The notes under the pieces were generated by a model, which saw only the letters and a list, made by a program, of their open reading frames with translations, did not search any database and was not told the origin of the DNA. From Pirellulales bacterium (GTDB lineage Bacteria; Planctomycetota; Planctomycetia; Pirellulales; JADZDJ01), in the NCBI GenBank assembly GCA_963719205.1, contig CAVRAW010000005.1:280958-344957 (forward strand): DNA of 64,000 bases, written 5' to 3'. A program made the position numbers and the translations under genes. Positions 907 through 64,000 of this stretch are shown here, in pieces (position 1 is the first letter of the stretch; each line of letters opens with the position of its first letter).

Positions 907-987
907 AATGGTTAGCGTCGGCCGCCAGGCCGAACTACTATCGCGCACCTTCCATCCGCTTGCGGCGTAGCACATTGCTCCGAAGGG

Positions 988-4220: not shown

Positions 4221-4483
4221 TCAGCCCGCCGTAATCATTCTCATGGGCGAAAAACGATGGACGTATACTATAATCGCCGCTCGTCCGCAGTGCAGCGTGA
4301 CCCTCCCCTTCTTTTTGCCTTTTTTTGATCGTCATCTTTTCAATAACAAAATCTTCCCTTCGGCCTTGCCGGTCGCCATCGATCGCATCCGATCACCCCG
4401 TTCATGCCAGGACCTAAAAATCCCTCCGTCCCCGCGCCAAATCGCTTCGGCCTGCTGTCGGGTGGCCCTCGTCGCCAAGTCAC

Positions 4484-6434: not shown

Positions 6435-6519
6435 ATCGACGTAGCCGAGGTCCAGTGGCAGAATAACTCGCATGGCTAGAGTTTTGCAGCGTTTCCGGTG
6501 TCTTCAAGAGCGCCCGGAA

Positions 6520-11112: not shown

Positions 11113-11487
11113 TGCAAAATCTGATTTGTCTCTTGACGAATCGGAAACCAGTGGCGAAACTCTATGAAACCAAGGTTAGGGAACAGAGAGTGAGCACTTC
11201 GCAATCGCCATGCTTTCGGGTGTCACACCCAGCTGGCTTAGGGGACTAGATCAGGCGTTCTTCGTGAGCCCGGCTATCCGTCCACGTTCGTCGAGTTATT
11301 GGACTGAGATAGAAGCGCGTCAGTGTAGCAACCACCTAGGATAGCGACTACAGGAAGACTCTACACCATCTCGTTTAACCTCATTGCCTCATCGCATTCG
11401 CGCTCCTGTCCTTTTTTACCGCCGATCCAACACTTTTAGCGATATTCAGCCGGAAATTTGTAGAAAACCAGCAGAAGTGGCATTACA

Positions 11488-14249: not shown

Positions 14250-14464
14250 TTTGTGCTGCCTGATTTCCCGCGGAATCGCCCCTCGCGCTGGATTTTTTTT
14301 GAATCCTCGGTTATAAATTAGTCGTTAGGGCAATCGGCCTCTTTCGCAGCAAAACGGTCGCTAGTGATAATTCTCACAGCCTAATAGGTGCCTGACCTCT
14401 CTTGGTCCGCGCCTGGCCGTCTGTTTCTTAACTGCGAATCTTCATTGGCACCTGGGAGTGTTGG

Positions 14465-19405: not shown

Positions 19406-19410
19406 GAATC

Positions 19411-20472
<1,062 letters not shown>

Positions 20473-20480
20473 ATTTGTTC

Positions 20481-20511
20481 CGTCGTTTAGCCCCGGGCTC
20501 GCCCCGGGGGT
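20481..20511. repeat. GC hairpin element family A, copy 1, immediately upstream of the argC start
   Basis: CGTCGTTTAGCCCCGGGCTCGCCCCGGGGGT; 7-bp stem CCCCGGG/CCCGGGG with a 5-nt loop; 29/31 nt identical to 21272..21302. It ends 8 nt from the argC ATG on the minus strand. Confidence 0.8.
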
Positions 20512-20558
20512 AGTGATTCAATACGCCGAATAAATTGAAGCGGCTAAGTATATCCTCT

Positions 20559-36516: not shown

Positions 36517-36649
36517 TGGCCGAAGCGGCCTGCCCACTGCCGTTCGGAGTCGGATGCGCGATCCGCTTCGGTGGTCGTTGGACTGCGCTAAGGCCCAAGC
36601 GAGCTACAACGCGTCAAATCGCTCGACCAACGATTTATTGGTCCTGGAA

Positions 36650-46900: not shown

Positions 46901-47207
46901 GCGTGAGATCGGTTTGCTGCGAGTTGTGGGAATGACACGACGGCAGGTACGGAAGATGGTGGCCTGTGAAGCACTATTGCTGGGAATTGTAGGTGTTTTG
47001 ATGGGTATCTTGGCCGGCGCGACGACGGCGCTGATTATCCATCTATGCAATGAGCCGTTGCTCGACCGACCGATACCGTTTGTGTTCCATACCTGGCTGC
47101 TGGCAGTTAGCGCGGGTGGTGGTTTGTTGGTCGCGATGCTGGCTGCCTGGCCGCCGGGCTACCGGGCGGCGCAATTGGATTTGCTTTCTGCAATCGCTTA
47201 CGAGTGA
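43967..47207 (+). CDS. ABC transporter: MacB/LolD-type ATPase in frame with two FtsX-family permease domains, frame broken about 3 times
   Basis: Walker A GPSGCGKSS, LSGGEQQRIAIARAL and VVLADEPSGALD. Then MNLAHLLARQWRQRRMRTLLSILSV (FtsX TM1), a periplasmic domain, and LNTLRMNFAERRHDMGVVRMLGATSRQI (FtsX core 1). A second unit follows with LRRPTRTGLTVGVVV...MSVFEQTREIGLLRVVGMTRRQV. Shifts lie near 45245, 45455 and 46040. Confidence 0.8.
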
Positions 47208-47226
47208 AAAGTGACGTGGTGAAAAG

Positions 47227-48149
47227 GTGGCTTGCTTATCGTTCGTAAAGTTTGCAGTGGCCGATGGCGTTGCCACGATTACTGTCGACCGACCCGATGT
47301 GCTCAATAAATTGAACCCGGTTGTTGTCCATCAGCTGCAGCAAGCGTTCGACCAAGCGTCTGCTGATCCAGAGGTGCGGGGAATTGTGCTGGCGGGCGAG
47401 GGAAAGGCGTTCATGGTCGGCGTCGATGTCGAATTCTTCATTCGCTGCATCGAGTCGGACGATATCGCGCGGATTGTAAAGTTCACCGAAGCAGGTCACC
47501 AACTGCTCAACGCAATTGATCGGTCGGCCAAGCCGGTGGTGGCGGCGCCAACGGCGCGGCATTGGGGGCGGGCCTTGAATTGGCCTTGGCCTGCGACTGG
47601 ATTGTGGCTTCGACGAGCGCGAGTTTCGGCTTTCCGGAGACAAGCTTGGGAATCTATCCCGCCCTGGGTGGAACACAAAGATGCCCGCGCACGATCAGCG
47701 TCGGATTGGCGAAATGGTTGATCCTTACTGGAAAGACGCTCTCAGCGGCCGATGCGGCGAAAATCGGGTTAGTCGACCGCGTCGTCGACGCCACGCAATT
47801 GGACGAAGTGGGCCGCGGGCTTGCGCTGGGTCGGTTGGCAAGCCAGAGGCCGACGACCGTACCAAACGAACTAACTGCGATCGAGCGATTCTTCAACAGA
47901 AGCCGCGCTGTCGACCTGCATGCGGGGACGGCCGATTCAGAAGGCAGTCCTGTACTTGTCCGCGCAATGCGATCGGTCGGCGCCAAGTCCCCCGTAGCTC
48001 TCGTACTAGCCGAGTGGCTGATTGAAGAGGGAAGTCGGCGGTCACTTGAAGAGGGATTGCAGATGGAGATCGACCACCTTCGGGACGTTTTCTCCACGGC
48101 CGAGGCCTATATCGGGCTGATGTCCTGCTTGCGGAGGGGGGCGTGGTAG
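47227..48149 (+). CDS. enoyl-CoA hydratase/isomerase (crotonase) family protein, frame broken near 47549
   Basis: VATITVDRPDVLNKL, LAGEGKAFMVGVD, then after the shift NGAALGAGLELALACDW and FGFPETSLGIYPALGGTQR. Confidence 0.8.
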
Positions 48150-48512
48150 TCGTCGTCAGTTGGTTGGAAAAGTCCAAGTATTCAGCCCTTCTTATCCAAC
48201 CGTCGCCGCTTGACAAGCCCATCCCAGGGTCGATAATCCGGGGAGATATTAAGGACGGTAAGTCAGGTTGCATGCGAAGGAAAGGCATCTCGCAAGGCAT
48301 TCAGTTCGGATTGGCTGGCCCTCGCGACGCGTGCAGAGAGTACGGAAATCCGTGGCCTGTGCGGCCATGATATCTCGGCAACCATCCGTCGCATTTCGTT
48401 CGATGGCCTGCTCTCACGTTGCTTGGCCGATTCGGGCCAGTCGCCGTCGACACAGGCCGAGTACCGATGCACCGTAACCTGTTCGGACAGACGGTGCCTT
48501 TTTTGTGCCTAT

Positions 48513-49634
48513 ATGCAGTTTGGATTCTGTTACATTCCGGACTACCGCGCGAGCCAGCATGGCACGTACCAATCGTGGTACGAACGACTACTGCATGAAT
48601 GGAAGACAGCCGACGATTTGGGATATGACGCTTTATGGATCGCGGAACATCGCTTCCCTGGATATGGCTTCTGCTCGACACCCGTCGTGGCCCAGGCGAT
48701 TGCCGGCCGGACGGAACGGATTCGTATTGGTACCGCAGTGGTGCTGCTGCCACAACGGCATCCCGTACTGACGGCCGAGGATTGGGCGGCCGTGGATCTA
48801 CTCTCCGGCGGCCGCCTTAATTTCGGTATTGGACGCGGCATTTTTGCCTATGACTTCGCGACCGTTGGCGTGAGATCATCGGAATCGTGCGCGCTTCGAG
48901 GAGGCCTGGGAGATCATCCGCCGACTTTGGACCGAACAGCGGGTGACGTACCAGGGCAAATTCTGGTCGTTTATCGATCATTCGCTCGAGCCGCAGCCGC
49001 TACAAAAGCCAACGCCGCCCACATTCGTGGGTTGCATCGCGACGCCGGAATCGTATCGCTGGGCCGGCGCCAACGGCATGCACCTGATTGTGGCGCCATT
49101 TCTGCTCAAATCAACCGAACAGCAGCGGGAGCTGCTCGACATTTACCGCGACTCGCTCGCTGAGGCTGGCTACGAGCCGGCCAGCTTTCAGGTCATTGCC
49201 AACTACCATTTAGCGCTCGTGTCAAGTGAGGGCGAACTGCGGGACGCGGAACAATACCTTTTTCGGTACCTGGACTTTCTTGCGGACGCCGAGTCGAAGC
49301 AGAAATCGTATTTGGACAAGCAACAATACGCAGCCTACGCACCGGCCGAAGCTCGGTCGCGGGATGTAGAAGATGTGCGTGCGCATTGCGCGGTCGTCGG
49401 AACAGCGCAACAGTGCATCGATCGAATCGCCGAATTGGCAGAAGCGTGCGGGCTTTCCGGCTGGATGTTTCACATCAATTATGGCGGCGTACCGCACGAA
49501 CGTGTCATCGAACAGATGCATTTGTTCGCCGAGGATGTGATGCCGACTTTCGCGAGTCCACACGAATTGGCTGCCTCAACGGGTGGGGCGTTAGGCAGGA
49601 CCCGGTCGACGAGCGGTTCGGTTGCGACCATTGA
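48513..49634 (+). CDS. LLM-class (luciferase-like) flavin-dependent oxidoreductase, frame broken near 48873; 3' boundary ambiguous
   Basis: MQFGFCYIP.., LGYDALWIAEHRF and LLSGGRLNFGIGRG, then after removal of one base DHRNRARFEEAWEIIRRLWTEQRVTYQGKFW..GTAQQCIDRIAELAEACG..AEDVMPTF. As given, the frame reads on into the next domain without a stop. Confidence 0.8.
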
Positions 49635-49635
49635 A

Positions 49636-50751
49636 ATGGAGCCGCTTTCAAACGGCCGGCTTGCCTCGCCATGTGACGCTTGGAGCGCGACAGCGACCAA
49701 CGGCGACGCGCTTTCGCCCACACGCCTCCGGATTTCGACCGAACTGGCGAGCGGCGCACGAGATATGACCAGTCGGGCCGTGAGCTATTGGCGAAGTTGT
49801 GTATTGTTTGCCGCGAACAAACTGGAGATTTTCAGCACGGTTGGCCACCGAACGATGACCGCGGGCGACGTTGCCGGCGAACTGCAATTGGACGTTCGTG
49901 GCACTGAAAAGTTGTTGAATGCGTGCGCGAGTCTTGGCCTGATGCAGAAGGAAGGTTCGAGATATTCACTTTCCGAAGACAGCCGACTGTATCTAGACCG
50001 CTCGTCAAGCGTGTACTTGGGAGATTGGGTGGCGCACTGGGCCGACATGCTTGCAAAGGGCAATTGGCAGAGGCTCGACGAAGCGGTCCGCAGCGGGCAA
50101 CCAGTCGCCGCGGCACAGACCTTATTCGGATTCGACGATCGCCGCGATCCGATGCACAACTGGGTTGTCGGCATGCATGAAATGGGGGTCGCAGGACATG
50201 CCGACCTGCTCGCGTCCGCAGCGTCGATCGACAACGTGAGCAGCCTCTTGGACGTGGGAGGTGGGCCTGGAACTTACAGCATTTACTTGTGCCGTCGATT
50301 TCCTGCTCTTGAAGCCACCATCGTTGACGCACCCGATGTAGCAATCGTGGCGAAGAAGTTGATCGCCCAGGCGAATTTGAACGAACGGGTTCATATTGTA
50401 AATCTTGATTTTCGTACGCAAGGGCTTGGTCGAAAGTTTGACATCGTTCTACTCTCGAACGTTTTGCACATGTGTTGCAAAGCGGACGCCCTCTTGATGC
50501 TCCGTAACGCGGCAGGGCACCTCGCCCAGCGCGGTCGATTGGTGATTCAGGAGTGGATTTTGAACGACGACGCCACTGGGCCCGAGCTTGCCGCGCTTTT
50601 CGACTTGCATATGTTGCTCAATCCTAACGCCGATGTCTATCGGTTCTCGGAGTTGATCGAAATGATCACTCAGTGTGGCTTTCGATTGGTGGAGTCGATC
50701 CCGACCGGTGGTTTGTATGACTTGATGATTGCGCAAAGACAATGCGACTGA
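49636..50751 (+). CDS. class I SAM-dependent O-methyltransferase (COMT/dimerisation-domain type); separate gene or fused to the LLM domain
   Basis: Winged-helix/dimerisation part LFAANKLEIFSTVGHRTMTAGDVAGEL..LLNACASLGLM. SAM motif I LLDVGGGPGTYS, then DIVLLSNVLH. A candidate ATG at 49636 lies 1 nt after a TGA in the +1 frame. Confidence 0.75.
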   Translation: MEPLSNGRLASPCDAWSATATNGDALSPTRLRISTELASGARDMTSRAVSYWRSCVLFAANKLEIFSTVGHRTMTAGDVAGELQLDVRGTEKLLNACASLGLMQKEGSRYSLSEDSRLYLDRSSSVYLGDWVAHWADMLAKGNWQRLDEAVRSGQPVAAAQTLFGFDDRRDPMHNWVVGMHEMGVAGHADLLASAASIDNVSSLLDVGGGPGTYSIYLCRRFPALEATIVDAPDVAIVAKKLIAQANLNERVHIVNLDFRTQGLGRKFDIVLLSNVLHMCCKADALLMLRNAAGHLAQRGRLVIQEWILNDDATGPELAALFDLHMLLNPNADVYRFSELIEMITQCGFRLVESIPTGGLYDLMIAQRQCD

Positions 50752-50767
50752 TGAAGGGGCCATCCTG

Positions 50768-52006
50768 ATGACTGCGGAGACGCAATACGAATCGCCGCAA
50801 GCCGATGTCAGTGACCCAATCGTTGTCGTGGGAGCGGGCGCCGCTGGCATGGGGGCGGCAATTGCCGCGGCCCGATCGGGTTCGAAAGTGCTTTTGGTTG
50901 ACTCCGCTGAAGGCCCTGGCGGAACTGTCACCAGCGCGCTCATCCACACACTCGGAGGAATCTATGATGATCGCCAGCAATACCTCAACGATGGAGTCGT
51001 CTGCGAACTCGCGGAGCGGCTACGCCGGGCCAGTTCATCGACACGTCCCCGCAAAATTGGACAGACCTGGTGCCTGAACGTTTGCCCCGAAGTGTACCGG
51101 ACGGTCGTCGAGAGGTGGATTGCGGAGGAAACCTTGATTCAACCGTTGTTTGGCGCCCGCGTTACGCGAGTGATAACCGATTGTGGAATGGCCGAAGAGC
51201 TAGAGTACCGCGGACTTTGGGGGACGCAGCGCGTTTTGTTGAAAGCGATCATTGACGCAACGGGCACAGCCGAGATCGTTCGGATGATTAATCCAGATCT
51301 GGTCTACGACGACGACGATCGAGCGGCCGGTGGAATGATTTTCCGGCTGCGGGACGTGAATCCCGGGGCGCTGAAGTTCCCCAACGGCGTCATTTTGATG
51401 CAACGCATGCGCACCGCGGCTGAGAATGCAGCGCTGCCGGCGCTTTGTGCACATGCCTGGCTGGATCAGGGTGTTTTCGAGGACGAAGTATTTGTAAAGC
51501 TGTTTGTACCATTAACGAATGATTGGACCCAGTCGGGGCAATGGACTCTGATTACACGGGAAGCGCAAGACGCGCAGGCCTGCATCATCGAGTATTTGGG
51601 GCGGCTTCCAGAGTTTGCACACGCGCGACTGGTTCAGACCGGCGTTTTGGGAGTTCGCGATGGCGGCCGCATCAAGGGGGAATACTATCTGACGGAAGAT
51701 GACGTGCGGTGCGGTCGTGCCTTTCCCGATCCAGCCTGTCGATGCTGCTGGCCGATCGAATATTGGCATCCGAGACGCGGCCTTGAATTGGAGTATCTGC
51801 GGCCCGGTACACGCTACGAGATTCCCTTGCGTGCGCTCAAAGTGAAGGGATTGAGAAATGTCTGGGCGGCCGGCAAATGTCTTTCGGCGGATCACCGAGC
51901 TCAAGCCTCGGCACGCGTTGTCGGGCAGTGTTGGGCGATGGGCCAGGCCGTCGCGAGGGCAGTTGTCGGTATTGGAAGCGATCGGTATGGCGCCAAATTG
52001 TTGTAG
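50768..52006 (+). CDS. FAD-dependent oxidoreductase (FAD_oxidored/GIDA-like fold)
   Basis: ATG at 50768. Dinucleotide-binding IVVVGAGAAGMGAAIAAARSGSKVLLVDSAEGPGGT and C-terminal WAAGKCLSADHRAQASARV. Confidence 0.8.
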   Translation: MTAETQYESPQADVSDPIVVVGAGAAGMGAAIAAARSGSKVLLVDSAEGPGGTVTSALIHTLGGIYDDRQQYLNDGVVCELAERLRRASSSTRPRKIGQTWCLNVCPEVYRTVVERWIAEETLIQPLFGARVTRVITDCGMAEELEYRGLWGTQRVLLKAIIDATGTAEIVRMINPDLVYDDDDRAAGGMIFRLRDVNPGALKFPNGVILMQRMRTAAENAALPALCAHAWLDQGVFEDEVFVKLFVPLTNDWTQSGQWTLITREAQDAQACIIEYLGRLPEFAHARLVQTGVLGVRDGGRIKGEYYLTEDDVRCGRAFPDPACRCCWPIEYWHPRRGLELEYLRPGTRYEIPLRALKVKGLRNVWAAGKCLSADHRAQASARVVGQCWAMGQAVARAVVGIGSDRYGAKLL

Positions 52007-52015
52007 GTGTTTGTC

Positions 52016-53473
52016 ATGTTCAATCTGTTCGAAGTATTTCGTCAGATGGCGAAGCGGCGACCTCGGCAGATCGCGTTGGTCGATTGTGATTTGCAAGAAT
52101 GCATGTCGTACGGCGAGCTGCTCGAGGAGGTCGAGCGATTTGCGCAATGTTTGCAGCGTGGCAAACTCCGCGCAGGCCAGTGCATCGGCTTGCATGTGCC
52201 CAGTGGCCGCAATTACATTTTGGCGACCTACGCCGCCTGGAAGTGCGGCGTCTGTGTCGTGCCCATCCCGATGGAATTGAGCACGCTGGAAAAGCAACTC
52301 ATTTGCGCGAGTATTGCCCAACATGGAATGCTGACTTGTGCGACTTCCACAATATTCTGGCAATCTTGGCAGCGCGGAGACGCCATACGACTGGGACCAC
52401 TTGAAATGGTTTTGCTCAAACCGGCGATTCGGCCGCCGGCAGGCCTCCAGGACATCAACGCGGCGTTCATTCGCTTCAGTTCGGGAACGACCGGTGACGC
52501 TAAGGGCGTCGTCCTTTCGCACGAAACGATTCTTGAACGAATCCACGCGGCCAACGAGGGATTGCATATTGGGCCGCGGGACCGTGTGGCCTGGCTGCTA
52601 TCGATGTCGTACCATTTCGCGGCATCCATCGTGGCTTACTTGTCGTTTGGCGCAACTGTCATCCTTCCAAAGCGAGAGCTGAATCTTGGAGGCGCCTTCA
52701 TCGATGCCGCGAGCCGATACGAGGCCACGCTGATCTACGGATCGCCGTTGCAGTACAAGCTGATGGCCATGGACCGCGGGAATCGTAGACTGGACACCGC
52801 ACGGATTGCGATTTCCACAGCTTCGTCGTTGTCGCGCGACACGGCCGAGTCGTTTTACAAGCGATTTGGCATCGCCTTGTCGCAGGTGTATGGCCTCATT
52901 GAAGTGGGGCTGCCGTGTATGAATTTGCGCTTTCCTTATGAGCACTATGATTCCGTCGGGCAGATGCTGCCGGCCTTCGAACTGCGATTGATCGACAGCG
53001 GCCACGGCGGCCACTTGAAAGAGATTCAACTGCGGGGGCGCGGATTTCTCGATGCTTACTACGACCCCTGGCAAACACGCCGTCAAATCATGCCGGACGG
53101 CTGGTTTCACACGGGGGATCTGGGCGAGGTGAACGAAGACGGGTGCCTGTTCATCCGTGGGAGATCCAAAGAGGTGATCAACGTAGGGGGCATGAAGGTT
53201 TTTCCTCGAGAAGTTGAGGCCGTGCTGCAATTACACCCGGCAATCAAAGAGGTGGCCGTCTTCGGAGTCCGCCAGATGCGAAGCCGAGAGTCGCTGTGGG
53301 CGGATGTGGTCATTCACCCCGAGGTCAAGACTCCGCCGAAGGAGAGCGAACTACGGCAATTTTGTGCCAAGCAATTGGCTCACTACAAGGTGCCGGAGCG
53401 AATCGCACTTGTGCCGCAACTGGCACGTACGGCGAGTGGCAAAGTCCTGCGTCGTGCAGTGGAATCCGCGTAA
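52016..53473 (+). CDS. AMP-dependent synthetase/ligase (fatty acyl-AMP/CoA ligase-like)
   Basis: Adenylation cores FSSGTTGDAKGV, GWFHTGDLG, GRSKEVINVGGMKV and ARTASGKVLRR. Directly abuts the previous stop (TAG 52004-52006); the alternative start is GTG at 52007. Confidence 0.88.
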   Translation: MFNLFEVFRQMAKRRPRQIALVDCDLQECMSYGELLEEVERFAQCLQRGKLRAGQCIGLHVPSGRNYILATYAAWKCGVCVVPIPMELSTLEKQLICASIAQHGMLTCATSTIFWQSWQRGDAIRLGPLEMVLLKPAIRPPAGLQDINAAFIRFSSGTTGDAKGVVLSHETILERIHAANEGLHIGPRDRVAWLLSMSYHFAASIVAYLSFGATVILPKRELNLGGAFIDAASRYEATLIYGSPLQYKLMAMDRGNRRLDTARIAISTASSLSRDTAESFYKRFGIALSQVYGLIEVGLPCMNLRFPYEHYDSVGQMLPAFELRLIDSGHGGHLKEIQLRGRGFLDAYYDPWQTRRQIMPDGWFHTGDLGEVNEDGCLFIRGRSKEVINVGGMKVFPREVEAVLQLHPAIKEVAVFGVRQMRSRESLWADVVIHPEVKTPPKESELRQFCAKQLAHYKVPERIALVPQLARTASGKVLRRAVESA

Positions 53474-53513
53474 CGAGATATCTTTCAGACCCTGCCACGT
53501 CGTGCGGATCAAT

Positions 53514-54362
53514 ATGCAACTGGGCAATTGGCAACTTGATACAGTCAGCGGGGGGACCTTTTGGCTGGACGGCGGCGTGATGTTCGGGGTCGTGCCCAAG
53601 TCGCTCTGGCAAGACATCGCAGCGCCGGACCCAATGAACCGCATCAAGTGCGCGAATAACTGCGTGTTGGCACGCGATGGTCGCCACACCGTGCTCATTG
53701 ATACTGGCTACGGTGGCAAGTTCTCGCCACTCGAGCGCAGGTTCTATGTCATGGAATCGGGTGAACCACTCTTGGCAAGCCTGGCCGCGTTGGGCGTGGC
53801 GGCGGAGGAGATCGACACGGTCGTCCTTAGCCATCTTCATTTCGACCACGTTGGCGGAGCGACTCGGCTTGATACACAGGGGCGGCGCGTCCCTGTCTTC
53901 ACTCGGGCGCGTCATTTCGTGAGCCGTTGCGAATGGGAGGACGCCACAAGCGGGAGTTCCGAACTCGCGTCCGCATATCCGCTGGATGACATTCTTCCGT
54001 TACGCGAAGCAGGTTTGATCAGGGTTGTAGAGGATGGACAAGAACTGCTGCCTGGGCTCCGCGGCCGCGTGACGGGGGGGCACACGCGTGGGCACATGTC
54101 GGTGTTTTTCGAATCCGGTGGTCAAACGACTGCCTATCTTGGAGATATTTGCCCGACGACCGCACATCTCAGGCGAATGTGGCATCTCGCGTATGACACC
54201 CACCCGTTGGATACTCGGCGGCGTAAGCCGGCACTGCTGAGCCAGGCAGCAGATGAGGGCTGCTGGGTCATCTGGAACCACGACCCGCGCGTGGCGGTCA
54301 GCCGAGTTGCCCGACATCCAAAGCGCGAATTTGTGGCGATCGATCGACGCGAGGCACTATAA
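53514..54362 (+). CDS. MBL-fold metallo-hydrolase
   Basis: ATG at 53514. Metal-binding motif LSHLHFDHVGG, with downstream GGHTRGH and WNHD. Confidence 0.85.
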   Translation: MQLGNWQLDTVSGGTFWLDGGVMFGVVPKSLWQDIAAPDPMNRIKCANNCVLARDGRHTVLIDTGYGGKFSPLERRFYVMESGEPLLASLAALGVAAEEIDTVVLSHLHFDHVGGATRLDTQGRRVPVFTRARHFVSRCEWEDATSGSSELASAYPLDDILPLREAGLIRVVEDGQELLPGLRGRVTGGHTRGHMSVFFESGGQTTAYLGDICPTTAHLRRMWHLAYDTHPLDTRRRKPALLSQAADEGCWVIWNHDPRVAVSRVARHPKREFVAIDRREAL

Positions 54363-54537
54363 GGTGCATCACTAAACCAACTAATCAGCAGTGTCTAGGT
54401 AGTTTTTGCAGTCTGTCTATTTGATCTATGTTGACTGCCTAAGGATTAGTCTTAGAATCAGGGCCGTTAGCTTTGAAGGCTTTGGGTAAGGTGGGGCTAT
54501 CAGGTAGCGTCTCTCGTCGATCGGCTGGGGGAACCGC

Positions 54538-56012
54538 ATGTCGCAACGGAAGTACACATTGCTGACTGGTGCAACGGGACTAGTAGGCGGTTATTTGCTC
54601 CGCGATTTTCTGAAGGCGGAAGTTGCGGTTGCCGTCCTGCGCGCTCGAACCACATGGCGTCCGCGGGGGGGCGGATCGACGCAGTTATGCGGCGTTGGGA
54701 GGACTTGGCCGGTTGCTTTTTGCCACGGCCTGTGGTGCTCGAAGGCGATCTTCGGGATCCTCATTTAGGGCTCAATGATCGCGACGCTGCTTGGGTCGCG
54801 GACAACTGTGATGCGGCCGTTCACAATGCAGCCAGCATGACGTTCCGCGAAGACAGCCACGGAGAGCCGTTCCGCACGAACGTCGACGGAATACGGAACT
54901 TGCTGGTAATTTGCGAACAGGCGGAGATCAGGAAATTCCATCATGTTTCGACGGCATACGTGTGCGGTCTTCGGGATAGTCTGATCTTTGAGGATGAACT
55001 GGACGTCGGCCAGCAAAACGGCAACGTTTACGAGATCAGCAAGTTGACCGCCGAGAAGATGGTGCGTGGGGCCGGATTTCTTAAGGAGTTGACAGTCTAT
55101 CGGCCCGCCAGCGTCGTTGGAGACTCGCAGACCGGTTACACCACGTCAACGCACGGCTTCTATTTGCCGCTGCAATTGGCCTATGCCATGGCCGACAAGG
55201 TTCCGACCCAGCTGATGGGCGACCGGTTCTTTCGGTTGCTTGGGCTGCAGGGAAACGAGGGCAAGAATCTGGTGCCGGTTGACTGGCTGTCAGCAGCGAT
55301 TGTGTACGTCGTGACTCACTCGGAGCACCATGGGAAGACGTATCACCTCACCAATCCATGCCCGGTGACGGTGCAGTGCATCCAGGAAGTGGTGCAAGAA
55401 GCCATTGAGAAGTATTCGTCGCGCCGCTTCGTCGGATCTCTGAGCGAGGAAGAGATTTCCCAATACGAGGAATTGTTTCGAAACTATATGGAGGTTTATC
55501 GGTCGCACTGGCGGGATGATCCGATCTTCGACCGTACAAACAGCGATGCTGCGCTCGCTCATTTGCCATGTCCACCGATTGATCATGATATGCTCCTGCG
55601 AATCGCGGGCTACCCGGTGCAGCAACGATTCATCTTGAAGCGCACGGCACCGACAGAGACTGGATTTCGGCCCCAAACTCATTTGCAGCGGTTTGCCCGC
55701 TGCGCCAGTCGGACAAATGGCAGCGCCGAGACAGAACAGAGCATCGGTATTAACATCACGGGCCGCGGTGGCGGACAGTGGCGAATCATTGTTCGCAATA
55801 ATCAGGTCGTGGGCATTGAATTGGGCCTGGGTTCCTTGGATCAGGCACAATTCTACATGAACTCAGACACATTTTTATCGCTTGTCGAAGGGCGATGTTC
55901 GGTTGACCAGTCGCTATGCGCTGGACGCATCTTCATCGAAGGCGGTAATGGTGGCATCGGCGGCCACCAGGAACACGTCAGGATTCTCGAGCACGTCGTC
56001 TCCTCTCGTTGA
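54538..56012 (+). CDS. thioester reductase-type SDR (NAD_binding_4 / fatty acyl reductase-like) fused to a C-terminal SCP2 lipid-binding domain, frame broken near 54642
   Basis: LLTGATGLVGGYLL (Rossmann), HNAASM, HHVSTAYVCG and YEISK (YxxxK). The C-terminal INITGRGGGQWRIIVRNNQVVGIELG..DTFLSLVEGRCSVDQSLCAGRIFIEGGNG is SCP2-like. ORFs 54538..54768 and 54654..56012 join at ..AVAVLRA|SNHMASAGGRIDAV. Confidence 0.8.
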
Positions 56013-56134
56013 GAAAATCGGCCGAACGGCAGAAAGCATTCTGCCGCGACACCAAGCGATGGCTGAACAACAAAGAGTTCAGACGGCTTGGATGCGCGAA
56101 TGATGAATGTGAAAGTCACGACGGTTCACAAGTT

Positions 56135-59100
56135 ATGAATAACTCCAAAGAGCGCACAAACGTTCCCGTGGCCATCATCGGCATGGCCTGCCGTTTACCT
56201 GGCGCTGACAATCTGGAGCAATACTGGGAGCTCTTGGTCGGCGGAAAGTGCGTTGTCGGCGAATTGCCGCACGAGCGTCTCGATCAGAGCATGTACTATG
56301 ATCCATGTCGTGGAAAGCGCGGCAAAACCTATTCGAAGCTTGGGGCCATCGTTTCGAGCCGCGACTTCGACCGCGGATCCTGCCCAATACCAACAGAATT
56401 AGAACGCAACGTCGACCTTGCGCATTTGCTGACGTGCCAGGTTGCAGCCGAGGCGTGCCGTCATGCCGGCCTAGATCCCTTCAATCTGCTGCTAAGGAAT
56501 ACGGGCGTCTACATCGGTCACGCACAAGGAAGCGACTTGTCCGGCGAATATATCTATGGCACTTGCATTGAAGAGGCCTGCGCAGTTTCTGCGCGAGGTT
56601 GAAGGCTTTCAGCAATTGCCGCCGGAGATGCAAGCGTCGGTTATCCGCGAGGTGGTCGAGACAGTCCGATCGGAAATGCCCAAACGAACGACAGACGCCC
56701 CGGACGTGGCGATTCACATGGCGGCGGGAACGATTTCCAAGGCCTTTGGGCTCACCGGCCCGTACATGGCGGTGAATTCAGCTTGTGCATCATCGCTGCA
56801 AACGATTCAGCTCGGTGTCCGCGCCTTGCAGATGGGGCGGATTGATATGGCCATTGTCGGTGGAGCTTCCGACCTCAAGTCGGACACGCTGGTCTTGTTC
56901 TCGCACGCCCAGTCGATGAGCGAAACCGGTTCGCGTCCTTTTGACGCCAGCGCCGACGGCCTGATTTGTTCTGAAGGCTACGTGGCTCTGGTGCTCAAGA
57001 CGTTGCCGAGGGCGCTAGCCGACGGCGACCCGATCCAGGCGGTCATTGTGGGATTAGGCGCTTCCTCGGACGGTCGAGGCAAGAGTCTGTGGGCGCCCGA
57101 AAGGAAGGGCAAATAAAGGCCATGGAGCGCGCCTACCGGAATGGAATCGACATGGCGTCGCTCCAATATATCGAGGCTCACGCGACATCGACGAGTCTCG
57201 GCGATGCCACAGAACTCAACACGTTGGTCGAAGTGTTCGGCCAGAAGTTTCCGCAGGGGAAAAGAATTCCAGTAGCCAGTGTCAAGGCGAACATCGGGCA
57301 CGCACTCGAATCGGCAGGTATCGCAGGCGTCATTAAGACCATCTTGTGCATGCAGCGTCGGACGATTGCCCCGGCAATCAATATTCAGTCACTCAACCCG
57401 AAGATCGATTGGGAAACGGCGCCAGTTTATGTCCCGCTGCAGCGCGAGAGCTGGCCGGAACAGCCCGATGGAACGCCACGTCGAGCCGCGGTAAACGCTT
57501 TTGGGATCGGCGGCTTAAATGTCCACATAGTCTTGGAAGAGTTTACCGAGGCGCGACGGTCCGAACTTTCTCAACCCTCCGCGAGAGAAGAACCTCAGTC
57601 GCTTCGCTCAGTGGGTGCCGCATCCTGGACGGCAGCCGAACATTCCGACCCCGACGCAATCGCCATTGTCGGAATGGGGTGCATATTCCCTGGCGCCTTG
57701 CATATAACGAAATTCTGGGAACTGCTTCGGTCCGGCCGCGACCCGAAGGGGCCCACGCCGCCTGGTCGATGGCGAGCCGATTTGGCGTATGAACGAGGCG
57801 CGCCAAAGCCCCACCGTACGCCGACGACGTTGGGCGGGTACATCACCGGCTTTGCTTACGATTGGAGGAAGCACAAGGTGCCGCCCAAGCAGGTCGAGCA
57901 GGCTGACCCCCTGCAATTCATGCTTCTGGAAGCGGTTGACCAGGCGCTTGCCGACGCGGGATACGACAAGCAGCCGTTTGACCGCTCGCGAGTGGGAGTG
58001 ATGGTCGGAACCCAATTTGGGAGCGATTTTGGTACGCAATTGGAGATCGGACTGAAGATCGTTCCTCTGGAAATCATGGTCCGGGAAGCCCTCGCCAAGC
58101 GGAGCGTTGTCGGCAGCGAGGCCGCGCAAATTGCTCGCAGTTCGCCGACGTCTTGGTGAAGCACTGGCCGGCCATCATCGACGAGACCGGCAGCTTTAGC
58201 ACAAGCACTCTCGCGTCGCGCATCACTAAGACCATGGATTTAATGGGAGGTGCCGCGGGGCTCGACAGTGGCTATACGTCGGCGGCCACGGCGCTGTCCG
58301 CCTGCAGGGACTTACTGCTGTCGGGTGATTGCGACATGATGATTTGCGCTGCAGGCCAACGGTGCATGACGCTGCCGCAATACGAAGGCATGGCGTTGGC
58401 AGGCATTCTTGCCACGAATGAGAGACCCGTCAGCCCATTTGATGCGAAGGCCAAAGGCGTAGTGCCCGCTGAAGGGGTCGGGGTGGTTCTCCTCAAGCGA
58501 CTTTCGGACGCCGTGCGCGACGGCAATCGCATCCACACAATCATCCGTGGAATTGGCGCCGTGCACGGCCGATCGGCCGACGAGGCGATGCGGCAGGCCA
58601 TGGAGCGCGCCCTCCAGGAGGCGTACGCAGCTCCTACCGACGTGGCCGCAATCGAACTGGACGGCACCGGTTTGCCAACGAGCGATGAGGAACAAATTCG
58701 CGCTGTGCTTTCGGTTTACGGCCAATCGCAACGGAAAGAGCCGCTCCTGTTGAGCACGATCGTGGGTCAGATTGGGCATACGATTGGCGCTTCGGCGATG
58801 GCATCGCTTATCAAGGCCAGCATGGAGGTCGAAAAAGGGGAGATGCCGGGCACCGTTGGTCTTGAATCACCGCTGGCGATCCTGCCTCAGAACTCCAGCG
58901 CGATCCGTGCCTCGACCGTTTTGCAGCCGATTCGTCACATGACCCCCGATGGACGACGATTGGTAGCCGTCAGCTCGTTCGGGAAGGGACTTGCTTATCA
59001 TATTTTGCTGGAACGCGGCGAACGTGTCCCCGTGATCGATGCCGCGATAAAATCCCCTGGGCTGCGGAAGGCCGACCCACGACGGCTCGTCACGACAGCG

Positions 59101-60584
59101 GCGCCGATTGGTGAAGAATTGGCCGCGGCCGACGCAATCCTTGGTTCGTCCAGAAGCAAATTCAGAATCTGTCGGCTGGGAGCTGCGACGCCGGACGAAT
59201 TAGACGCCAAAATCAAAGAGTCGCTAGGGGATTGCGCCGCAGTATTTGCGGCTGGCGAGTTCGCTCCGTTCGCCCCTGCCGATCCGTGCGCCTGGCCATC
59301 GTGGCCGACAGTGTGGAAATGCTGTCCCGGAAGTTGCAATCGGCCGCAAAGCAGTGGCGAAATCCAGATGCGGTGCCGGTATTGGAACAGCAGGGTTGCT
59401 TCTATCGGACGACTGGGGTGCGGCAACCGAGGGTGGCATTTCTATTCCCGGGACAAGGGTCGCACTATCACGGAATGCTTCGCGAGCTTGTTCGGGACGT
59501 GCCGGCTGCCGCTGCTGCAATGCGCGCGATGGACGCGGTGATGATGCAGCACGGCTTGCAGACGTTTGGGCAAATGGCCTGGGAGAATCCGAACGAACTG
59601 GGCAGCGACATTTGGGTGACACAGGTCGTAATGTTGCTGGCCGATTTGATTGTCCATGCGGCCATTATGGATCTGGGCGTGCGACCGGACTTGATTGCCG
59701 GCCACAGCTACGGCGAATTGGCGGCGATAACCGCTGGCACCTCATGGGACCTTGAGACAGCCATTACCGCGGCCAGAGCACGCTACGAGAGTATCGAAGC
59801 CACTCCTAGCGCCCGCGGTTTCATGCTGGCCACTGATGCCGGACCGCAACAGATCGAGCAATTGGCAGCCCTGCTGTCCAATCCAGTTTATGTTGCCAAT
59901 ATCAATGCGCCGGATCAAGCGGTCGTTGGAGGTCGCATCGAAGGTTTGAAGGAACTGGCTGGGTTACTGGAATCGCGAGGCCAAGTCGCCCAGATACTCT
60001 CGGTGCCCTGCCCCTATCACACGCCGCTGATGGAGGGAGTCGGCGCTTTGTTCAAGCGAACGCTGGATGCACTGTCGATCCACCCTCCGCGTGTGCCAAT
60101 GCTTTCGACGGTGACCAACCGCTACGTAGCCGAACCGGACGAGATTCGCTCAAACCTCGCCGCTCAACTCACAACGCCAGTGCGTTATTTAGAACTGGTA
60201 CAGCGCATTGCCGATGAACAATACACGGTGTTCGTAGAAGTCGGACCACAACAAGCGCTGACAAGGCTCAACCGTCGAATTCTGGAAGGTCGCGAAGTGG
60301 CAGGGATAATCGCTTGTGACAACCCGAAGCGAGCCGGATTGGAGCAACTACTGCAGGTGAGAGCTTTGCTTGAGTGCGTGGGAGGGCTGCCGGCGCCATC
60401 GGCGGCGCAACCGGTCCACATAACTGCAAAGCCTGCGGCAACCCCCGAAGCAATCCGATTGAAAAAGGGAAGCATTACCCACATCGATGCGACGGAGCGG
60501 CGCCGCCAAAAGATGCGACAAGCGGCGACAAAAGTGTCCTCAACCGCCGGTTCCGAAAACGGATGCAGTCACCAGCGATTATGA
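56135..60584 (+). CDS. type I PKS / PUFA-synthase-like subunit A: KS - inactive KS (CLF-like) - acyltransferase; frame broken 4 times
   Basis: KS1 carries VAIIGMACRLPGA, active-site VNSACASSL, EAHATSTSLGD and KANIGHALESAG. KS0 carries IAIVGMGCIFPGA, but LDSGYTSAATAL (Cys to Tyr) and ELDGTGLPTSD (His to Asp). AT carries FLFPGQGSHY, GHSYGE and PYHTPLM. Shifts lie at 56557-56590, and near 57098, 58142 and 59284. The stop overlaps the next ATG (ATGA at 60581-60584). Confidence 0.88.
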
Positions 60585-63500
60585 CGCAATCGCATGGCTC
60601 AAAGTCGCTTGTTGCACGTACGGATTCCCAACCGGCGGCCAGAACATCAATGCCCGCCGGCCGGCCTGCGCCGGATTCTTTGCCACCTGCGCGACTTGCG
60701 CCTCGAGATGCCGGTGGGGCTGGGCCGCCGCCGAGGTTGGCGCCGGCTCCCAAATCGTCCGCCGTGCTTGCGGCAACTGGAATACCGGAGCGGGCTGAGA
60801 ATTGGTCGGGCGCCTCGGACGCCGACGTACACGAGCCGCACCAATCGAAAGAGCAGAACACAGCCGAGTTGGAGCAGTTTTTGATTAACTTCGTGGTGGA
60901 GCAGACCGGTTATCCGCCGGAGGTCGTGGAGTTGGATGCGGATCTGGAGGCGGACTTGGGCATCGACAGCATCAAGAAGGCGCAAATGTTCGGCGAGCTG
61001 CGTGAGTACTTCGACGTCACGCCCACGGACAACCTGACGCTGGATGATTTTCCGACATTGCGGCACATCGTGAATTTCCTGGCCGCCGCCCCGCAAAAAG
61101 CTGCACCGCAAAAAACGGCCGCAACAGCAGTCGCGGCGCCTGCTCCGCAGGCTCCGCAGCCTGCTTCGCCACCCGCAGTTCATGCCGTGTACGCGCCGGT
61201 TGCTCGCCGGACTGGCGAGTCTGTCCCGGCGAGCCGGCCCACGCCAGCGGCCGCGCCGAACGTCGACACAGCCGAGTTGGAGCAGTTTTTGATCAACTTC
61301 GTGGTGGAGCAGACCGGTTATCCGCCGGAGGTCGTGGAGTTGGATGCGGATCTGGAAGCGGACTTGGGCATCGACAGCATCAAGAAGGCGCAAATGTTCG
61401 GCGAGCTGCGTGAGTACTTCGACGTCACGCCCACGGACAACCTGACGCTGGATGACTTTCCGACATTGCGGCACATCGTGAATTTCCTGGCCGCCGCCCC
61501 GCAAAAAGCTGCACCGCAAAAAACGGCCGCAACAGCAGTCGCGGCGCCTGCTCCGCAGGCTCCGCAGCCTGCTTCGCCACCCGCAGTTCATGCCGTGTCC
61601 GCGCCGGTTGCTCGCCGGACTGGCGAGTCTGTCCCGGCGAGCCGGCCCACGCCAGCGGCCGCGCCCAACGTCGACACAGCCGAGTTGGAGCAGTTTTTGA
61701 TCAACTTCGTGGTGGAGCAGACCGGTTATCCACCGGAGGTCGTGGAGTTGGATGCGGATCTGGAGGCGGACTTGGGCATCGACAGCATCAAGAAGGCGCA
61801 AATGTTCGGCGAGCTGCGTGAGTACTTCGACGTCACGCCCACGGACAACCTGACGCTGGATGACTTTCCGACATTGCGGCACATCGTGAATTTCCTGGCC
61901 GCCGCCCCGCAAAAAGGATCGGCTATGCCGGTGCCGTTGCCTGCTGAAAGGAAGGATTCAGCGGCGGGAACTGCTGTGTCATCCGCGGATAGCCTGGCCG
62001 CTCGGGCGAACATCACCGTCGGTGCCGTCGCGGCTACAGAGCCCAGGGGCCTCACAAACGTCGACGTGCTATACCTGCGAGGATCTTCCTACGAGATGGG
62101 CTACCAACAGGGTATCGAAAAAAAGGCGGAAATTCGGCGCATTCTGCGGCGACTTGTCGACCTCACGGACGGAGACTGGAGCGAACTGCCGATTCCGCCT
62201 GCCGCACTGGAGCAACCGGAGCGGTTCTTTTCCGCCGATGAGCTTGAGGAATTGCGTGGGCTGGCAGACGCCGTTGAGGTTCCACAATCCAATTTACAGG
62301 CGCTGAATCTGGCGTTTCGCGGCGACCTGTCAGGAAATTGTGCCCAGGTGGGCATTGCTCCAAACAGCCGCAGCGCGGCAAGCGTTTTGCACGGCTTCGT
62401 TGGCGACCTCTCATTGCCGCCGGCGCTCGTGGAAATGTTATGTCCGTTCATCGCAGTGCGCGAACCGGCTCATGGCTGGGCCTGTGCGACAGTGAGTTTT
62501 CCGGGAATGGCAGGCAGTCTTGTGGGCGTGAATGGCAACGGGCTAGCTGCGTCGCTTGGCGCTCTTTTGAATGGGCAGGATCGATCGAGCGGCCCCGTTC
62601 ATGTCGGTCCGAGCTTACGAGTCGAAGATGTGCTGCATCGTGACGGAACGATTACTCAGGCCAAAGCGAGTTTGCAGGCAAGTCGCTTACCACAGGGCTG
62701 GGTGGGACTTCTCAGCCGTTCGGGCGAAGGACGTATGTGCGTCGTTGAGCACGACGGATCAGAAATTGCGGCGCTGGAACGCGACGACCAACTATTTGCC
62801 ACGAATCACTGTCTTGTGCGCCGGAATGCATCCCCGGCACCAGCACGATCGACGGAGCGATTAGCCTGGTTGCAGCAGCGGCTGAGCGGACCGCGTGTTC
62901 CGAACAACGCGGCCGAATTGCTCGGGGCATTGGGAGAGTTGCCATCGCAGGCATCAATGCGAATTGTGGTCGTCGTCGACGCAGCGGGGGGCGATCTCTT
63001 GTTGCAGCATAATTCAACTCAAGAGCGGATTCACGTGGCGCACTTTTGCCCTGTCACCCCGCCGGGGACGTCGAAATCGCGCTCGCGGGCAATACCACGA
63101 TTGGCGACGTGGAAAACCCAGAGTGCGAAAGCCAAGATCTTCACTACGACGTGAATGAGGAAGGCCAGTACTTACGCTTTACGCTGCGCATGCGACCGTT
63201 CCCGTGGGAGACAAAGCCGGCCGAGTTTCCAAATTGGAAAGGGGCTGCTGCAATCCACGGCAATGGGGCAATGGCCGAGGCCCTGCAGCGCCGCTTGATT
63301 GCCGGCGGTGCAACCGTAGTTCGATTGCACGAATCGGATTCGCCAGAGGCGGCCGTGGCTGAATTCGAGCGCCTCTCACGGTTCCACGATCGCACACTTG
63401 TTCCTCACCTCCCTTCGCGACGAACAGCGGTTGGAACGTATCGATTCTGCTGATTGGAATCGACTCGTCGAGCGTCAGCTCCAGGTGCCGTATTTCCTCT

Positions 63501-64000
63501 GTCAGCGATTTTTTCAGTTGGCGGGCGACGCCCGACGGCTCGACGACTGTAGCGTGGTCGCGCTGGTCGACCTCGGCGGAGATTTCGGCTTCTCCGGGAA
63601 TGTGGCGACCCCCGAATCGGGCTTTCTGACGGGGCTGATGAAGGAACTTTACCTGGAACACTCGATCGTGCGTGGCTTCAAGCACGTCCGCTGCAAAGCG
63701 ATCGATGCGCCCCGCGGGGAAGAGCCCGACGTGCTGGCGGCCAATATCTGTCGCGAGCTCGCGGGTGGGACCAACGACTACGAGGTCGCATTCGTCGAGG
63801 GTCGGCGGTATGTGCAGGTGGCCCTGCCTGCGGCGGCAAAACTCGAGCCACACAGTGCAGTCCGGCCGGGAGGTACCTGGGTAGTGACCGGCGGCGCCCG
63901 GGGGATTACGGCCGAGTGTGCTTTTGAACTAGGCCGTCGATTCGGATTGAAGTTGCACCTGATCGGCAGGTCGCGGCTGGCCAGTATCGACCCGTCGTGG
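60581..64000 (+). CDS. type I PKS / PUFA-synthase-like subunit B: 3 tandem ACPs - C45/Ntn-hydrolase (IAT-like acyltransferase) domain - ketoreductase; partial at the right edge; frame broken twice
   Basis: Three copies of ELEQFLINFVVEQTGYPPEVVELDADLEADLGIDSIKKAQMFGELREYF (Ser in DSI). LRGSSYEMGYQQG...SGNCAQVG...FPGMAGSLVGVNGNGLAASL...FATNH is peptidase-C45/AAT-like. KR structural part HGNGAMAEALQRRLIAGGATVV and catalytic Rossmann GTWVVTGGARGITAECAF..LHLIGRS. Shifts lie near 63050 and 63385, and the ORF is open at 64000. Confidence 0.85.
60861..61915 (+). repeat. 408-bp tandem DNA repeat (~2.6 copies) encoding the ACP units plus Ala/Pro linkers
   Basis: Units begin at 60861, 61269 and 61677, an exact 408-nt period. 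Only a handful of substitutions separate the copies (e.g. gattaac/gatcaac, gatgatttt/gatgacttt, tacgcg/tccgcg). Confidence 0.9.

Follow-up and report, generated by a model that had tools for sequence, protein, structure and literature searches.

A 64,000-nt stretch of DNA (here called the window) from an uncultured Pirellulales bacterium (GCA_963719205.1, contig CAVRAW010000005.1, positions 280,958 to 344,957 of the forward strand) likely carries an orphan "secondary lipid" cluster of the Pirellulales, of which it contains the 5' two-thirds and which is built around one iterative type I megasynthase of the fatty acid synthase/polyketide synthase (FAS/PKS) kind. The block runs on the + strand and reaches from 47227 to where the window stops; its co-oriented open reading frames (ORFs) are tightly packed, and many overlap in differing frames. 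The cluster is real, apparently functional, and orphan, and its giant enzyme apparently makes a long-chain lipid. Judged by gene content, it seems to represent a class of orphan secondary-lipid or iterative PKS clusters that is common in planctomycetes, in a rare version carrying a C45-like domain and a second ketoreductase (KR). A first-pass annotation of the same DNA had described a noncanonical iterative type I PKS/FAS lipid cluster resembling polyunsaturated fatty acid (PUFA) synthases, with reductive release and tailoring genes, and our analysis supports that core reading. Its domain identities stood, but its gene boundaries did not: after fusions were recognized and frames repaired, the ten co-oriented genes that it listed became seven cluster genes, or eight with the upstream transporter. 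Pfam matches agreed with the calls for the accessory genes (ECH, Bac_luciferase, Dimerisation plus Methyltransf_2, FAD_oxidored PF12831, AMP-binding, Lactamase_B, and NAD_binding_4) and for the synthase (two ketosynthase units, Acyl_transf_1, and three PP-binding domains).

Planctomycetes harbor many orphan PKS-like clusters and unusual envelope lipids. The window and its relatives define a conserved cluster type in which a synthase of ketosynthase (KS), chain-length factor (CLF), acyltransferase (AT), acyl carrier protein (ACP), C45-like, KR, KR, and dehydratase (DH) domains (KS-CLF-AT-ACPn-C45-KR-KR-DH) is accompanied by a thioester reductase (TR) with an SCP2-like tail, a phosphopantetheinyl transferase (PPTase), a short-chain dehydrogenase/reductase (SDR), tailoring genes, and an exporter. 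It gives heterologous expression and lipidomics a specific target.

The megasynthase and its reading frame

The megasynthase gene (56126 to 64000, on the + strand like the other cluster genes and the transporter gene) is incomplete, the window ending near residue 2,610 of about 3,700, as placed by collinear tblastn alignments to the related loci L007, L005, and L010. It begins with a KS domain (56165 to 57574) that matches Pfam ketoacyl-synt, Ketoacyl-synt_C, and KAsynt_C_assoc and has a Cys in ACASS and His residues in EAH and NIGH. A second KS-like domain (57656 to 58863) was recognized by Pfam and by alignment with KS and CLF sequences. It has Tyr in place of the active-site Cys (orthologs have Gln or Glu), and we therefore assigned it to the CLF type; its first His is replaced by Asp. 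The AT domain (59439 to 60287; Acyl_transf_1, E = 2e-33) carries GHSYG and is followed by three tandem ACP domains (60858 to 61916), seen as three PP-binding stretches with the serine motif DSI. Tandem Repeats Finder reported a 408-bp repeat in the ACP region (2.6 copies, 98% identity), which suggests concerted evolution or recent duplication. The ACP layout varies within the family. Unlike relatives with one or two ACPs between CLF and AT, the window synthase has none there, with three after the AT, and L007 has two before and two after.

Downstream of a C45-like domain, the last part of the gene within the window (63389 to 64000) would encode the upstream structural region of the first KR and its first Rossmann strand (TWVVTGGARGIT, at about 63873) before the translation runs off. 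This fragment is 61 to 65% identical to residues 2491 to 2694 of the L007 protein and 40% identical to the second KR repeat; Pfam returned no match to the fragment alone. We therefore read it as a putative KR from its collinearity with orthologs, and the earlier KR call stands on that footing, with the structural region and first strand being what the window itself contains.

Frame disruptions, at which the first-pass annotation had only hinted, number about 12 across the block of about 17 kb. Seven of them fall in the megasynthase, at about 56579, 57096, 58136, 59285, 60440 to 60583, 63038, and 63369. Through a 99%-identical fragment in a homology search, we reached an independent assembly of a near-identical strain (L099). 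Its positions 1 to 15904 align to window positions 44539 to 60434 with 98.9% identity and 21 indels, and it reads through the switches at 56579, 57096, 58136, and 59285 in a KS-CLF-AT ORF of 1,271 aa. Indels between the two assemblies also match the breaks in the transporter, enoyl-CoA hydratase, luciferase-like monooxygenase (LLM), and TR genes, with each assembly carrying its own subset. Eighteen of the 21 have a GCGC motif no more than 4 nt away, compared with a background of 12% (binomial P = 2.5e-14), and the remaining window switches at 63038 and 63369 have GCGC as well. Homopolymer errors were considered as the cause and rejected: few indels fell in homopolymer runs, and GCGC was the associated motif. 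The stitched synthase translation contains zero in-frame stops. Substitutions between the strains, counted in in-frame segments (n = 73), were distributed 12/15/46 over the three codon positions, with 43 codons changed synonymously and 28 nonsynonymously. Because L099 reads through, the indels cluster at GCGC, stops are lacking, and substitutions are mostly synonymous, we conclude that the frameshifts are sequencing or basecalling artifacts at GCGC in genes under purifying selection. The motif is probably methylated, misleading long-read basecalling, and the clustering of errors at it probably extends over the whole window.

The same disruptions could be taken to mean that the cluster is a decaying, nonfunctional array of pseudogenes. 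Twelve or so breaks in 17 kb, together with the lack of the ACP-C45-KR part in L099, would fit such decay. However, the frameshift sites are themselves indel differences from an assembly that reads through them, the 18 indels at GCGC carry the signature of systematic error with a different subset per assembly, the stitched synthase is free of nonsense codons, and the differences between strains are mostly synonymous. Furthermore, the essential IleRS and ArgJ genes elsewhere in the window look frameshifted as well. We consider real decay very improbable. In such long-read metagenome-assembled genomes (MAGs), GCGC-clustered frameshifts should not be taken as evidence of decay or as gene boundaries.

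The first-pass annotation had placed such a boundary at the AT/ACP junction, describing two ATGA-coupled megasynthases. We found that KS-CLF-AT and ACP3-C45-KR are most probably parts of one protein. By tblastn, the window gene is collinear with residues 10 to 2694 of a single ORF in L007, and each ortholog from a short-read MAG is encoded by one uninterrupted ORF, of 3,787 (L007), 3,814 (L005), 3,670 (L006), 3,769 (L010), and 3,599 (L100) aa. The switch at 60440 to 60583 coincides with the AT/ACP junction, and any 1-nt insertion within it yields a stop-free frame. The coupled pair is thus probably an artifact.

A synthase truly split in this lineage, into translationally coupled KS-CLF-AT and ACP3-C45-KR-KR-DH proteins, would account for the perfect ATGA stop/start overlap at 60581 to 60584. 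The junction lies in a Pro/Ala-rich linker that would tolerate a break, the KS-CLF-AT ORF of L099 stops six codons past the position equivalent to 60434, and both fused and split layouts are known among PUFA-like synthases (PMC3098273). Yet every short-read ortholog is a single ORF, GCGC-linked 1-nt indels occur at about 1.3 per kb in the window and explain all other switches in the megasynthase, and one inserted base anywhere in the interval makes the frame continuous. A genuine split is therefore unlikely, though it deserves some weight. L104 (P0027, on a 6.6-Mb contig) was considered for the same question and set aside as uninformative, being a C45-less relative from another long-read assembly.

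The L099 assembly diverges abruptly from the window at its position 15904 (window 60434), in the C-terminal linker of the AT, and its KS-CLF-AT ORF ends six codons on. Past the break are unrelated genes (FG-GAP-like, AI-2E transporter, STAS, and MlaE). The break could reflect a chimeric contig or a real deletion or rearrangement allele.

A C45-like domain inside the synthase

Between the ACPs and the KR, the first-pass annotation had noted an extra domain of hydrolase or acyltransferase type. This was borne out: positions 62066 to 63040 encode a domain of the C45 family of N-terminal nucleophile (Ntn) hydrolases, which resemble penicillin acyltransferase. It matched NCBIfam NF040521 with E = 3e-24 and 85.8 bits (cutoff, 85), and an hhalign comparison of 11 in-synthase domains with 11 standalone C45 proteins scored 99.8% (E = 5.5e-30) over 306 columns. 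Matches to Pfam AAT (E = 0.064) and to penicillin acyltransferase structures (E = 0.25) were not significant. We relied on the profile-profile comparison and did not use an AlphaFold model of the domain, which was built on a five-sequence alignment and reached a pLDDT of 38.6.

All standalone C45 proteins have Cys in the nucleophile column. Within synthases, this Cys is kept in the window (SGN-C-AQV), L013, L004, and P0002. Elsewhere it is replaced by Ser (L005, L012, and L100), Ala (L003, L006, and L009 to L011), Ile (L007), or Thr (L008). Other positions are strongly conserved in the in-synthase domains, for example ADLTDGDW and GSLVGLNGNGLAAS. Because the nucleophile has been lost while these positions were kept, we propose a noncatalytic role in most copies; in the majority of the family, the domain most likely serves in structure or docking. 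In the clade of the window, where the Cys is retained, it may still be catalytic. A bolder form of this idea is that the subclade carries an active Ntn enzyme, which either cuts the protein autoproteolytically between the ACPs and the KR or performs an in-line acyl transfer. We regard this as a long shot. If it were true, autoproteolysis would yield two chains from one gene and expose an N-terminal Cys, whereas an acyltransferase would take over the completed chain from the ACP and deliver it to an acceptor. Both would be modes of chain release or transfer not known from FAS, PKS, and PUFA synthases, and the Cys-less subclades would hold a pseudoenzyme kept for architecture.

The domain is rare. 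Four proteins matched it in a collection of 5.8 billion, and full-length in-synthase copies were found in only about eleven Planctomycetota MAGs (L004 to L013 and L016) among 185,579 species genomes scanned. These copies are 49 to 73% identical, L013 being the closest; the metagenome loci L001 to L003 likewise carry an in-synthase C45. Together, the C45 insertion and the second KR appear to mark a rare planctomycete subclade. No description of a C45 domain in a PKS, or of such an architecture, was present in the literature searched, so a megasynthase containing this Ntn-hydrolase-like domain seems not to have been reported before. Retention of the nucleophile in one clade and its loss from others provide a natural experiment.

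Standalone C45 genes, including planctomycete ones, were not adjacent to synthases. A link to the Type R lipid synthases, which are carried by Elusimicrobia, Chloroflexi, and Acidobacteria, was considered and rejected: standalone C45 genes occur in these phyla, and none of about 65 loci had KS, AT, or KR nearby. In-synthase C45 domains share a near-invariant Cys in GWACATV (window position ~62483, residue C140) that is missing from standalone C45 proteins and could be a structural or an alternative reactive residue. In L016 (Planctomycetaceae MAG ABC1.68, 2674 to 14633), a TR gene is followed by an ACPn-KS-CLF-AT-C45-KR-DH synthase and then an SDR gene. In this rearranged variant, the ACPs stand in front, the AT is joined straight to C45, and only one KR is present, an arrangement showing that the C45-KR junction is the conserved unit.

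Accessory genes, relatives, and a proposed pathway

Immediately upstream of the synthase is a standalone SDR of the thioester reductase type with a C-terminal SCP2-like domain (54514 to 56012). The reductase, with TGxTGxxG and YxxxK motifs, was identified by Pfam NAD_binding_4 and NCBIfam Thioester-redct, and a homolog (P0125) is 100% identical to it. An indel at 54639 puts the N terminus out of frame, and tblastn locates it in another frame. The SCP2-like domain lies at about 55730 to 56009. Matches of the last 150 residues to the Pfam SCP2 model were subthreshold (E = 0.01 to 0.03; E = 0.025 for the window), and one homolog (P0160) has a precomputed PF02036 match. An AlphaFold (AF2) model built on 42 homologs reached a pLDDT of 87.4, and in a Foldseek search of the PDB its top matches were SCP2, SCP-2L, and the C-terminal domains of Eis and SdsA1 (probability, 0.97 to 1.0; TM, 0.5 to 0.63), nearly all matches having the SCP2 fold. 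The tail is thus predicted to adopt the SCP2 α/β fold, in line with the fusion that the first-pass annotation had proposed.

Before the TR gene lie a metallo-β-lactamase (MBL)-fold hydrolase (53514 to 54362) and an acyl-AMP/CoA ligase (52007 to 53473). The hydrolase matches Pfam Lactamase_B and resembles the YtnP lactonase of NCBIfam (E = 2e-53, below cutoff); its orthologs adjoining TR genes are 64 to 75% identical. The ligase is intact at 488 aa (AMP-binding and AMP-binding_C), finds its top NCBIfam match in the long-chain-fatty-acid-CoA ligase PRK06187 (below cutoff), and is 43 to 65% identical to syntenic orthologs. It is a candidate for the enzyme that activates the starter acid. Next upstream is an intact FAD-dependent oxidoreductase (50729 to 52006; FAD_oxidored, E = 4e-65), which probably starts at the ATG at 50768. 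Its orthologs are 41 to 75% identical, and their genes are always followed by the ligase gene.

The LLM and O-methyltransferase (OMT) that had been listed as separate genes are one fused protein of about 770 aa (48423 to 50751; Bac_luciferase, Dimerisation, and Methyltransf_2), broken by indels at 48887 and 49070. The ORF at 48943 to 50751 carries the C terminus of the LLM and the OMT in one frame, as seen by Pfam, and in each intact ortholog (741, 792, and 770 aa) a single ORF encodes both. The LLM part falls below the cutoffs of the NCBIfam LLM families.

The block opens with a crotonase (enoyl-CoA hydratase/isomerase; 47227 to 48149), split by indels at 47545/47549, with ECH_1/ECH_2 matches on both halves. 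The first-pass annotation had counted it as a cluster gene. However, no crotonase lies beside the related clusters in L084, L086, and L100. Its membership is doubtful, because it is absent from all syntenic loci and a σ70-like promoter match (48210 to 48237, 11 of 12 positions) lies between the crotonase and LLM genes. A second match lies between the MBL and TR genes (54431 to 54458, 10 of 12 positions). These two best matches, each in one of the block's two widest intergenic gaps, hint at internal promoters, although the promoter/terminator scan as a whole gave fewer matches than shuffled sequence.

The crotonase gene begins 19 nt after the 3' end of a MacB-type ABC exporter gene (43967 to 47207), which encodes an ATPase, a MacB periplasmic core, and two FtsX permease domains (ABC_tran, MacB_PCD, and FtsX). 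Pfam thus confirmed the ATPase-FtsX2 transporter described earlier at this site, and it is a candidate exporter for the product. Indel errors at 45229, 45463, 46029, and 46813 spread the gene over four ORFs; its L099 counterpart is one called gene of 732 aa with MacB_PCD and FtsX.

Relatives of the locus suggest what lies past the window end. They share a core of a TR of about 500 aa, a KS-CLF-(ACP1-2)-AT-ACPn-C45-KR-KR-DH megasynthase, a PPTase, and an SDR of about 260 aa. KR-KR-DH, PPTase, and SDR are found in 11 relatives, including the closest (L013 and L004). The first-pass annotation had placed a possible DH, enoyl reductase (ER), and PPTase downstream, and the relatives agree: KR-KR-DH completes the protein, and the genes for an ACPS-family PPTase, directly after the synthase, and a FabL-like SDR follow. 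Both KR copies in orthologs have TGGARGIT and the catalytic Ser and Tyr (YAAAS in KR1 and YAAAN in KR2), and the DH is of the PKS type (PS-DH/PKS_DH_N, HxxxGxxxxP). The SDR, the most conserved cluster protein (83 to 94% identity), is best matched by the enoyl-ACP reductase FabL (256 bits; next family, 189; cutoff, 328) and is a candidate trans-acting ER. In L006, tryptophan biosynthesis genes lie upstream of the TR gene, so we took TR, synthase, PPTase, and SDR as the minimal core. About 1.7 kb downstream of the SDR gene, L004 encodes an animal-heme-peroxidase-family protein with SdrD B-like repeats (18452 to 20548).

The tailoring genes recur as well. A metagenome scan with the FAD oxidoreductase recovered 15 loci. 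L086 and L100 to L103 (the latter being the Bythopirellula MAG GCA_034439695.1, with a synthase of 3,599 aa and an intact ortholog on contig JAWXAV010000063.1) carry, in this order, LLM-OMT, FAD oxidoreductase, ligase, MBL hydrolase, an MMPL transporter, TR, and one undivided synthase that includes C45 and tandem KRs; L084, L087, L092, and L094 show partial versions of the order. LLM-OMT, FAD oxidoreductase, ligase, and MBL hydrolase are therefore syntenic with TR and synthase across independent contigs and lineages. The adjacent exporter differs, being a MacB-type ABC protein in the window and MMPL in a relative. The broad class is abundant, with 3,257 KS-CLF homologs and 2,924 TR homologs, mostly planctomycete.

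From these genes, a pathway can be proposed. The ligase would activate a carboxylic, probably fatty, acid starter and so prime the synthase. The AT would load malonyl units onto the tandem ACPs, and KS-CLF would elongate the chain iteratively and set its length. Most β-carbons might then be reduced by the cis KR or KRs, the PKS-type DH, and the FabL-like ER acting in trans; skipped reductive steps could leave hydroxyl or keto groups. Release from the ACP by TR would turn the chain into an aldehyde or alcohol, with the SCP2-like domain holding the hydrophobic product. LLM-OMT and the FAD oxidoreductase may oxygenate, methylate, or desaturate it, and the transporter (MacB type, or MMPL in a relative) would export it to the envelope.

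Several observations weigh against this reading of the cluster. All tailoring enzymes fall below the NCBIfam equivalog cutoffs, so that their substrates are guesses and the tailoring chemistry is left to guesswork; the first-pass statement that the product could not be predicted from sequence was upheld. The part of the cluster past 64000 is extrapolated from relatives at 57 to 73% identity, and the L099 assembly is without everything past the AT. In L001, L005, L007, L009, and L010, the ligase beside the MBL gene is only 26 to 28% identical to that of the window; therefore, priming may differ among subclades. The MBL hydrolase and the C45 domain are two further possible off-loading enzymes, which makes the release route ambiguous. 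The literature searched reported no product, expression, or biochemistry for any family member. Finally, the SDR scores below the FabL cutoff (256 versus 328 bits) and may be a ketoreductase.

If the SDR were a ketoreductase, the product would be much less reduced, perhaps a largely unsaturated polyene or polyol made by the logic of enediyne PKSs (PKSE) or polyene pigments. The synthase has no cis ER domain, both KR domains have the catalytic Ser and Tyr, and the SDR matches FabG models in addition to falling short of the FabL cutoff. As general background, a set of KS, AT, ACP, KR, and DH domains with an adjacent PPTase resembles iterative synthases of the PKSE type, and this resemblance speaks for a polyene. 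Nevertheless, FabL is the clear best family for the SDR (256 versus 189 bits), and the SDR is conserved more strongly than any other cluster protein. The SCP2-like domain and the MMPL and MacB exporters suggest an aliphatic lipid, and tandem ACPs with KS-CLF are typical of fatty-acyl secondary lipid synthases (PMC3098273). We judge a polyene or polyol quite unlikely and favor a largely reduced, long-chain lipid.

Three features lie elsewhere in the window. GC skew changes sign between about 34000 and 40000 (from about -0.2 to about +0.1), with a cumulative minimum near 34 to 38 kb. The shift might reflect an origin or terminus of replication or just a change in gene orientation; dnaA was not seen nearby. 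Positions 11488 to 16138 encode two or three large secreted proteins with PEP-CTERM-like ends (VPEPS, a hydrophobic stretch, and RRR), one of them split by a frameshift near 13000. Paralogous membrane proteins with a polytopic N-terminal domain and C-terminal tetratricopeptide repeats are encoded at 5010 to 6434 and 36554 to 39010.

Comparison with known secondary lipid synthases

On present sequence evidence, the cluster would work like a secondary lipid synthase of the PUFA or Hgl kind, but it fails three features that define Pfa systems. Tandem ACPs and a KS-CLF pair are present; a PfaA-type KS-malonyl/acyltransferase (KS-MAT), a FabA-like DH/isomerase, and a PfaD ER are absent. That no KS-MAT precedes the ACPs, as first annotated, was upheld: the order is KS-CLF-AT-ACP3-C45-KR, with one catalytic KS and one AT. 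The window also contains no DH or ER, again as annotated, and DH was seen only in complete orthologs. No FabA-like domain was found in the window or in the flanks of relatives, and no PfaD-type ER occurred among genes called within about 10 kb of the synthase (L001, L002, L100, and L104) or among the ORFs scanned in L007; a copy elsewhere in the genome could exist.

A genuine Pfa-type synthase with shuffled domains, making cis-polyunsaturated omega-3 fatty acids or olefin precursors, would share the tandem ACPs, the KS-CLF pair, and a weak KS and KR likeness to the PfaA model TIGR02813 (407 and 214 bits; cutoff, 1,010). In contrast, the sole DH is of the PKS type (PS-DH/PKS_DH_N), KS-MAT of the PfaA type is lacking, and a thioester reductase with oxidative and methylating tailoring genes is conserved instead. 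The layout also matches none of the types of Shulse and Allen (PMC3098273). Because the window, and the 10 kb around the synthase in those relatives that were examined, contain neither a FabA-type dehydratase nor a PfaD-type ER, we do not regard this as a PUFA synthase, and such a product has next to no chance of being the true one.

Pfa synthases and secondary lipid synthase types A to T were classified by Shulse and Allen in 2011 (PMC3098273). The window family shares with them an iterative type I organization, tandem ACPs, KS-CLF, AT, KR, a product presumed to be fatty acyl, and, as seen in relatives, a PPTase gene. It adds the C45-like domain, the tandem KR-KR, TR-SCP2, LLM-OMT, the FAD oxidoreductase, the AMP ligase, and the MBL hydrolase, and, unlike Pfa, it has one KS-CLF pair as its sole condensing unit. 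The comparison with this classification that the first-pass annotation had called for found the window layout in none of types A to T. Nearest in spirit is Type R, a single KS-MAT-CLF-ACP(3-6)-KR megasynthase followed by a PPTase gene (PMC3098273). By its description, the window family appears to share with it the single megasynthase and, in relatives, the downstream PPTase, and to differ in layout: the window order is KS-CLF-AT, and C45, the second KR, DH, TR, and the tailoring genes are extra. HglC and proteins of Types C, I, and L are fusions of the KS-CLF-AT type, and the planctomycete Types I (Gemmata) and J (Planctomyces limnophilus) have other layouts (PMC3098273). The literature searched contained no paper that ties a type I or PUFA-like synthase of planctomycetes to a product.

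Among planctomycetes, simpler clusters such as L104 have the same core order, with TR, KS-CLF-AT-ACPn-KR-DH, and a FabL-like SDR, and are 45 to 53% (KS-CLF) and 44% (TR) identical to the window. They are likewise uncharacterized and are without the C45-like domain and the second KR. The window family thus looks like a subclade of these clusters with a C45-KR insertion.

In the Hgl system, a thioester reductase releases a long-chain alcohol or diol for the envelope, again without FabA-type DH/isomerase domains; the reductase and an ACP form one fusion protein (HglB), and the system includes a glycosyltransferase. The TR of the window, by comparison, is standalone with an SCP2-like tail. A second KS, in the PfaA-like HglE, is a further Hgl component that the window family lacks, and neither a glycosyltransferase nor a second KS-MAT protein was found in the window block or in the clusters of relatives. 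Nor does Hgl, which belongs to another phylum and to heterocysts, have C45, tandem KR, LLM-OMT, or the FAD oxidoreductase. The two also have in common the PUFA-like character and a KS-CLF-AT unit, in HglC of the Type F system (antiSMASH "hglE-KS") (PMC3098273).

PUFA-like synthases of the zeamine and fabclavine type (PMC13291983 and PMC5811116) have recruited a TR, like the window family and Hgl. They are found in Proteobacteria as hybrids of nonribosomal peptide synthetase (NRPS) and PKS with an aminotransferase, whereas the cluster in the window has neither NRPS nor aminotransferase, and its recruited domain is the C45-like one. That domain is homologous over its whole length to the C45 family (NF040521; isopenicillin-N acyltransferase, PDB 2X1C/2X1D) and shares with standalone members an N-terminal GxxYExGxQQG motif and a GxxGxxxGxN motif. 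Known C45 members are standalone proteins of about 350 to 460 aa; in the window family, the domain sits inside a much larger protein, the megasynthase of about 3,700 aa.

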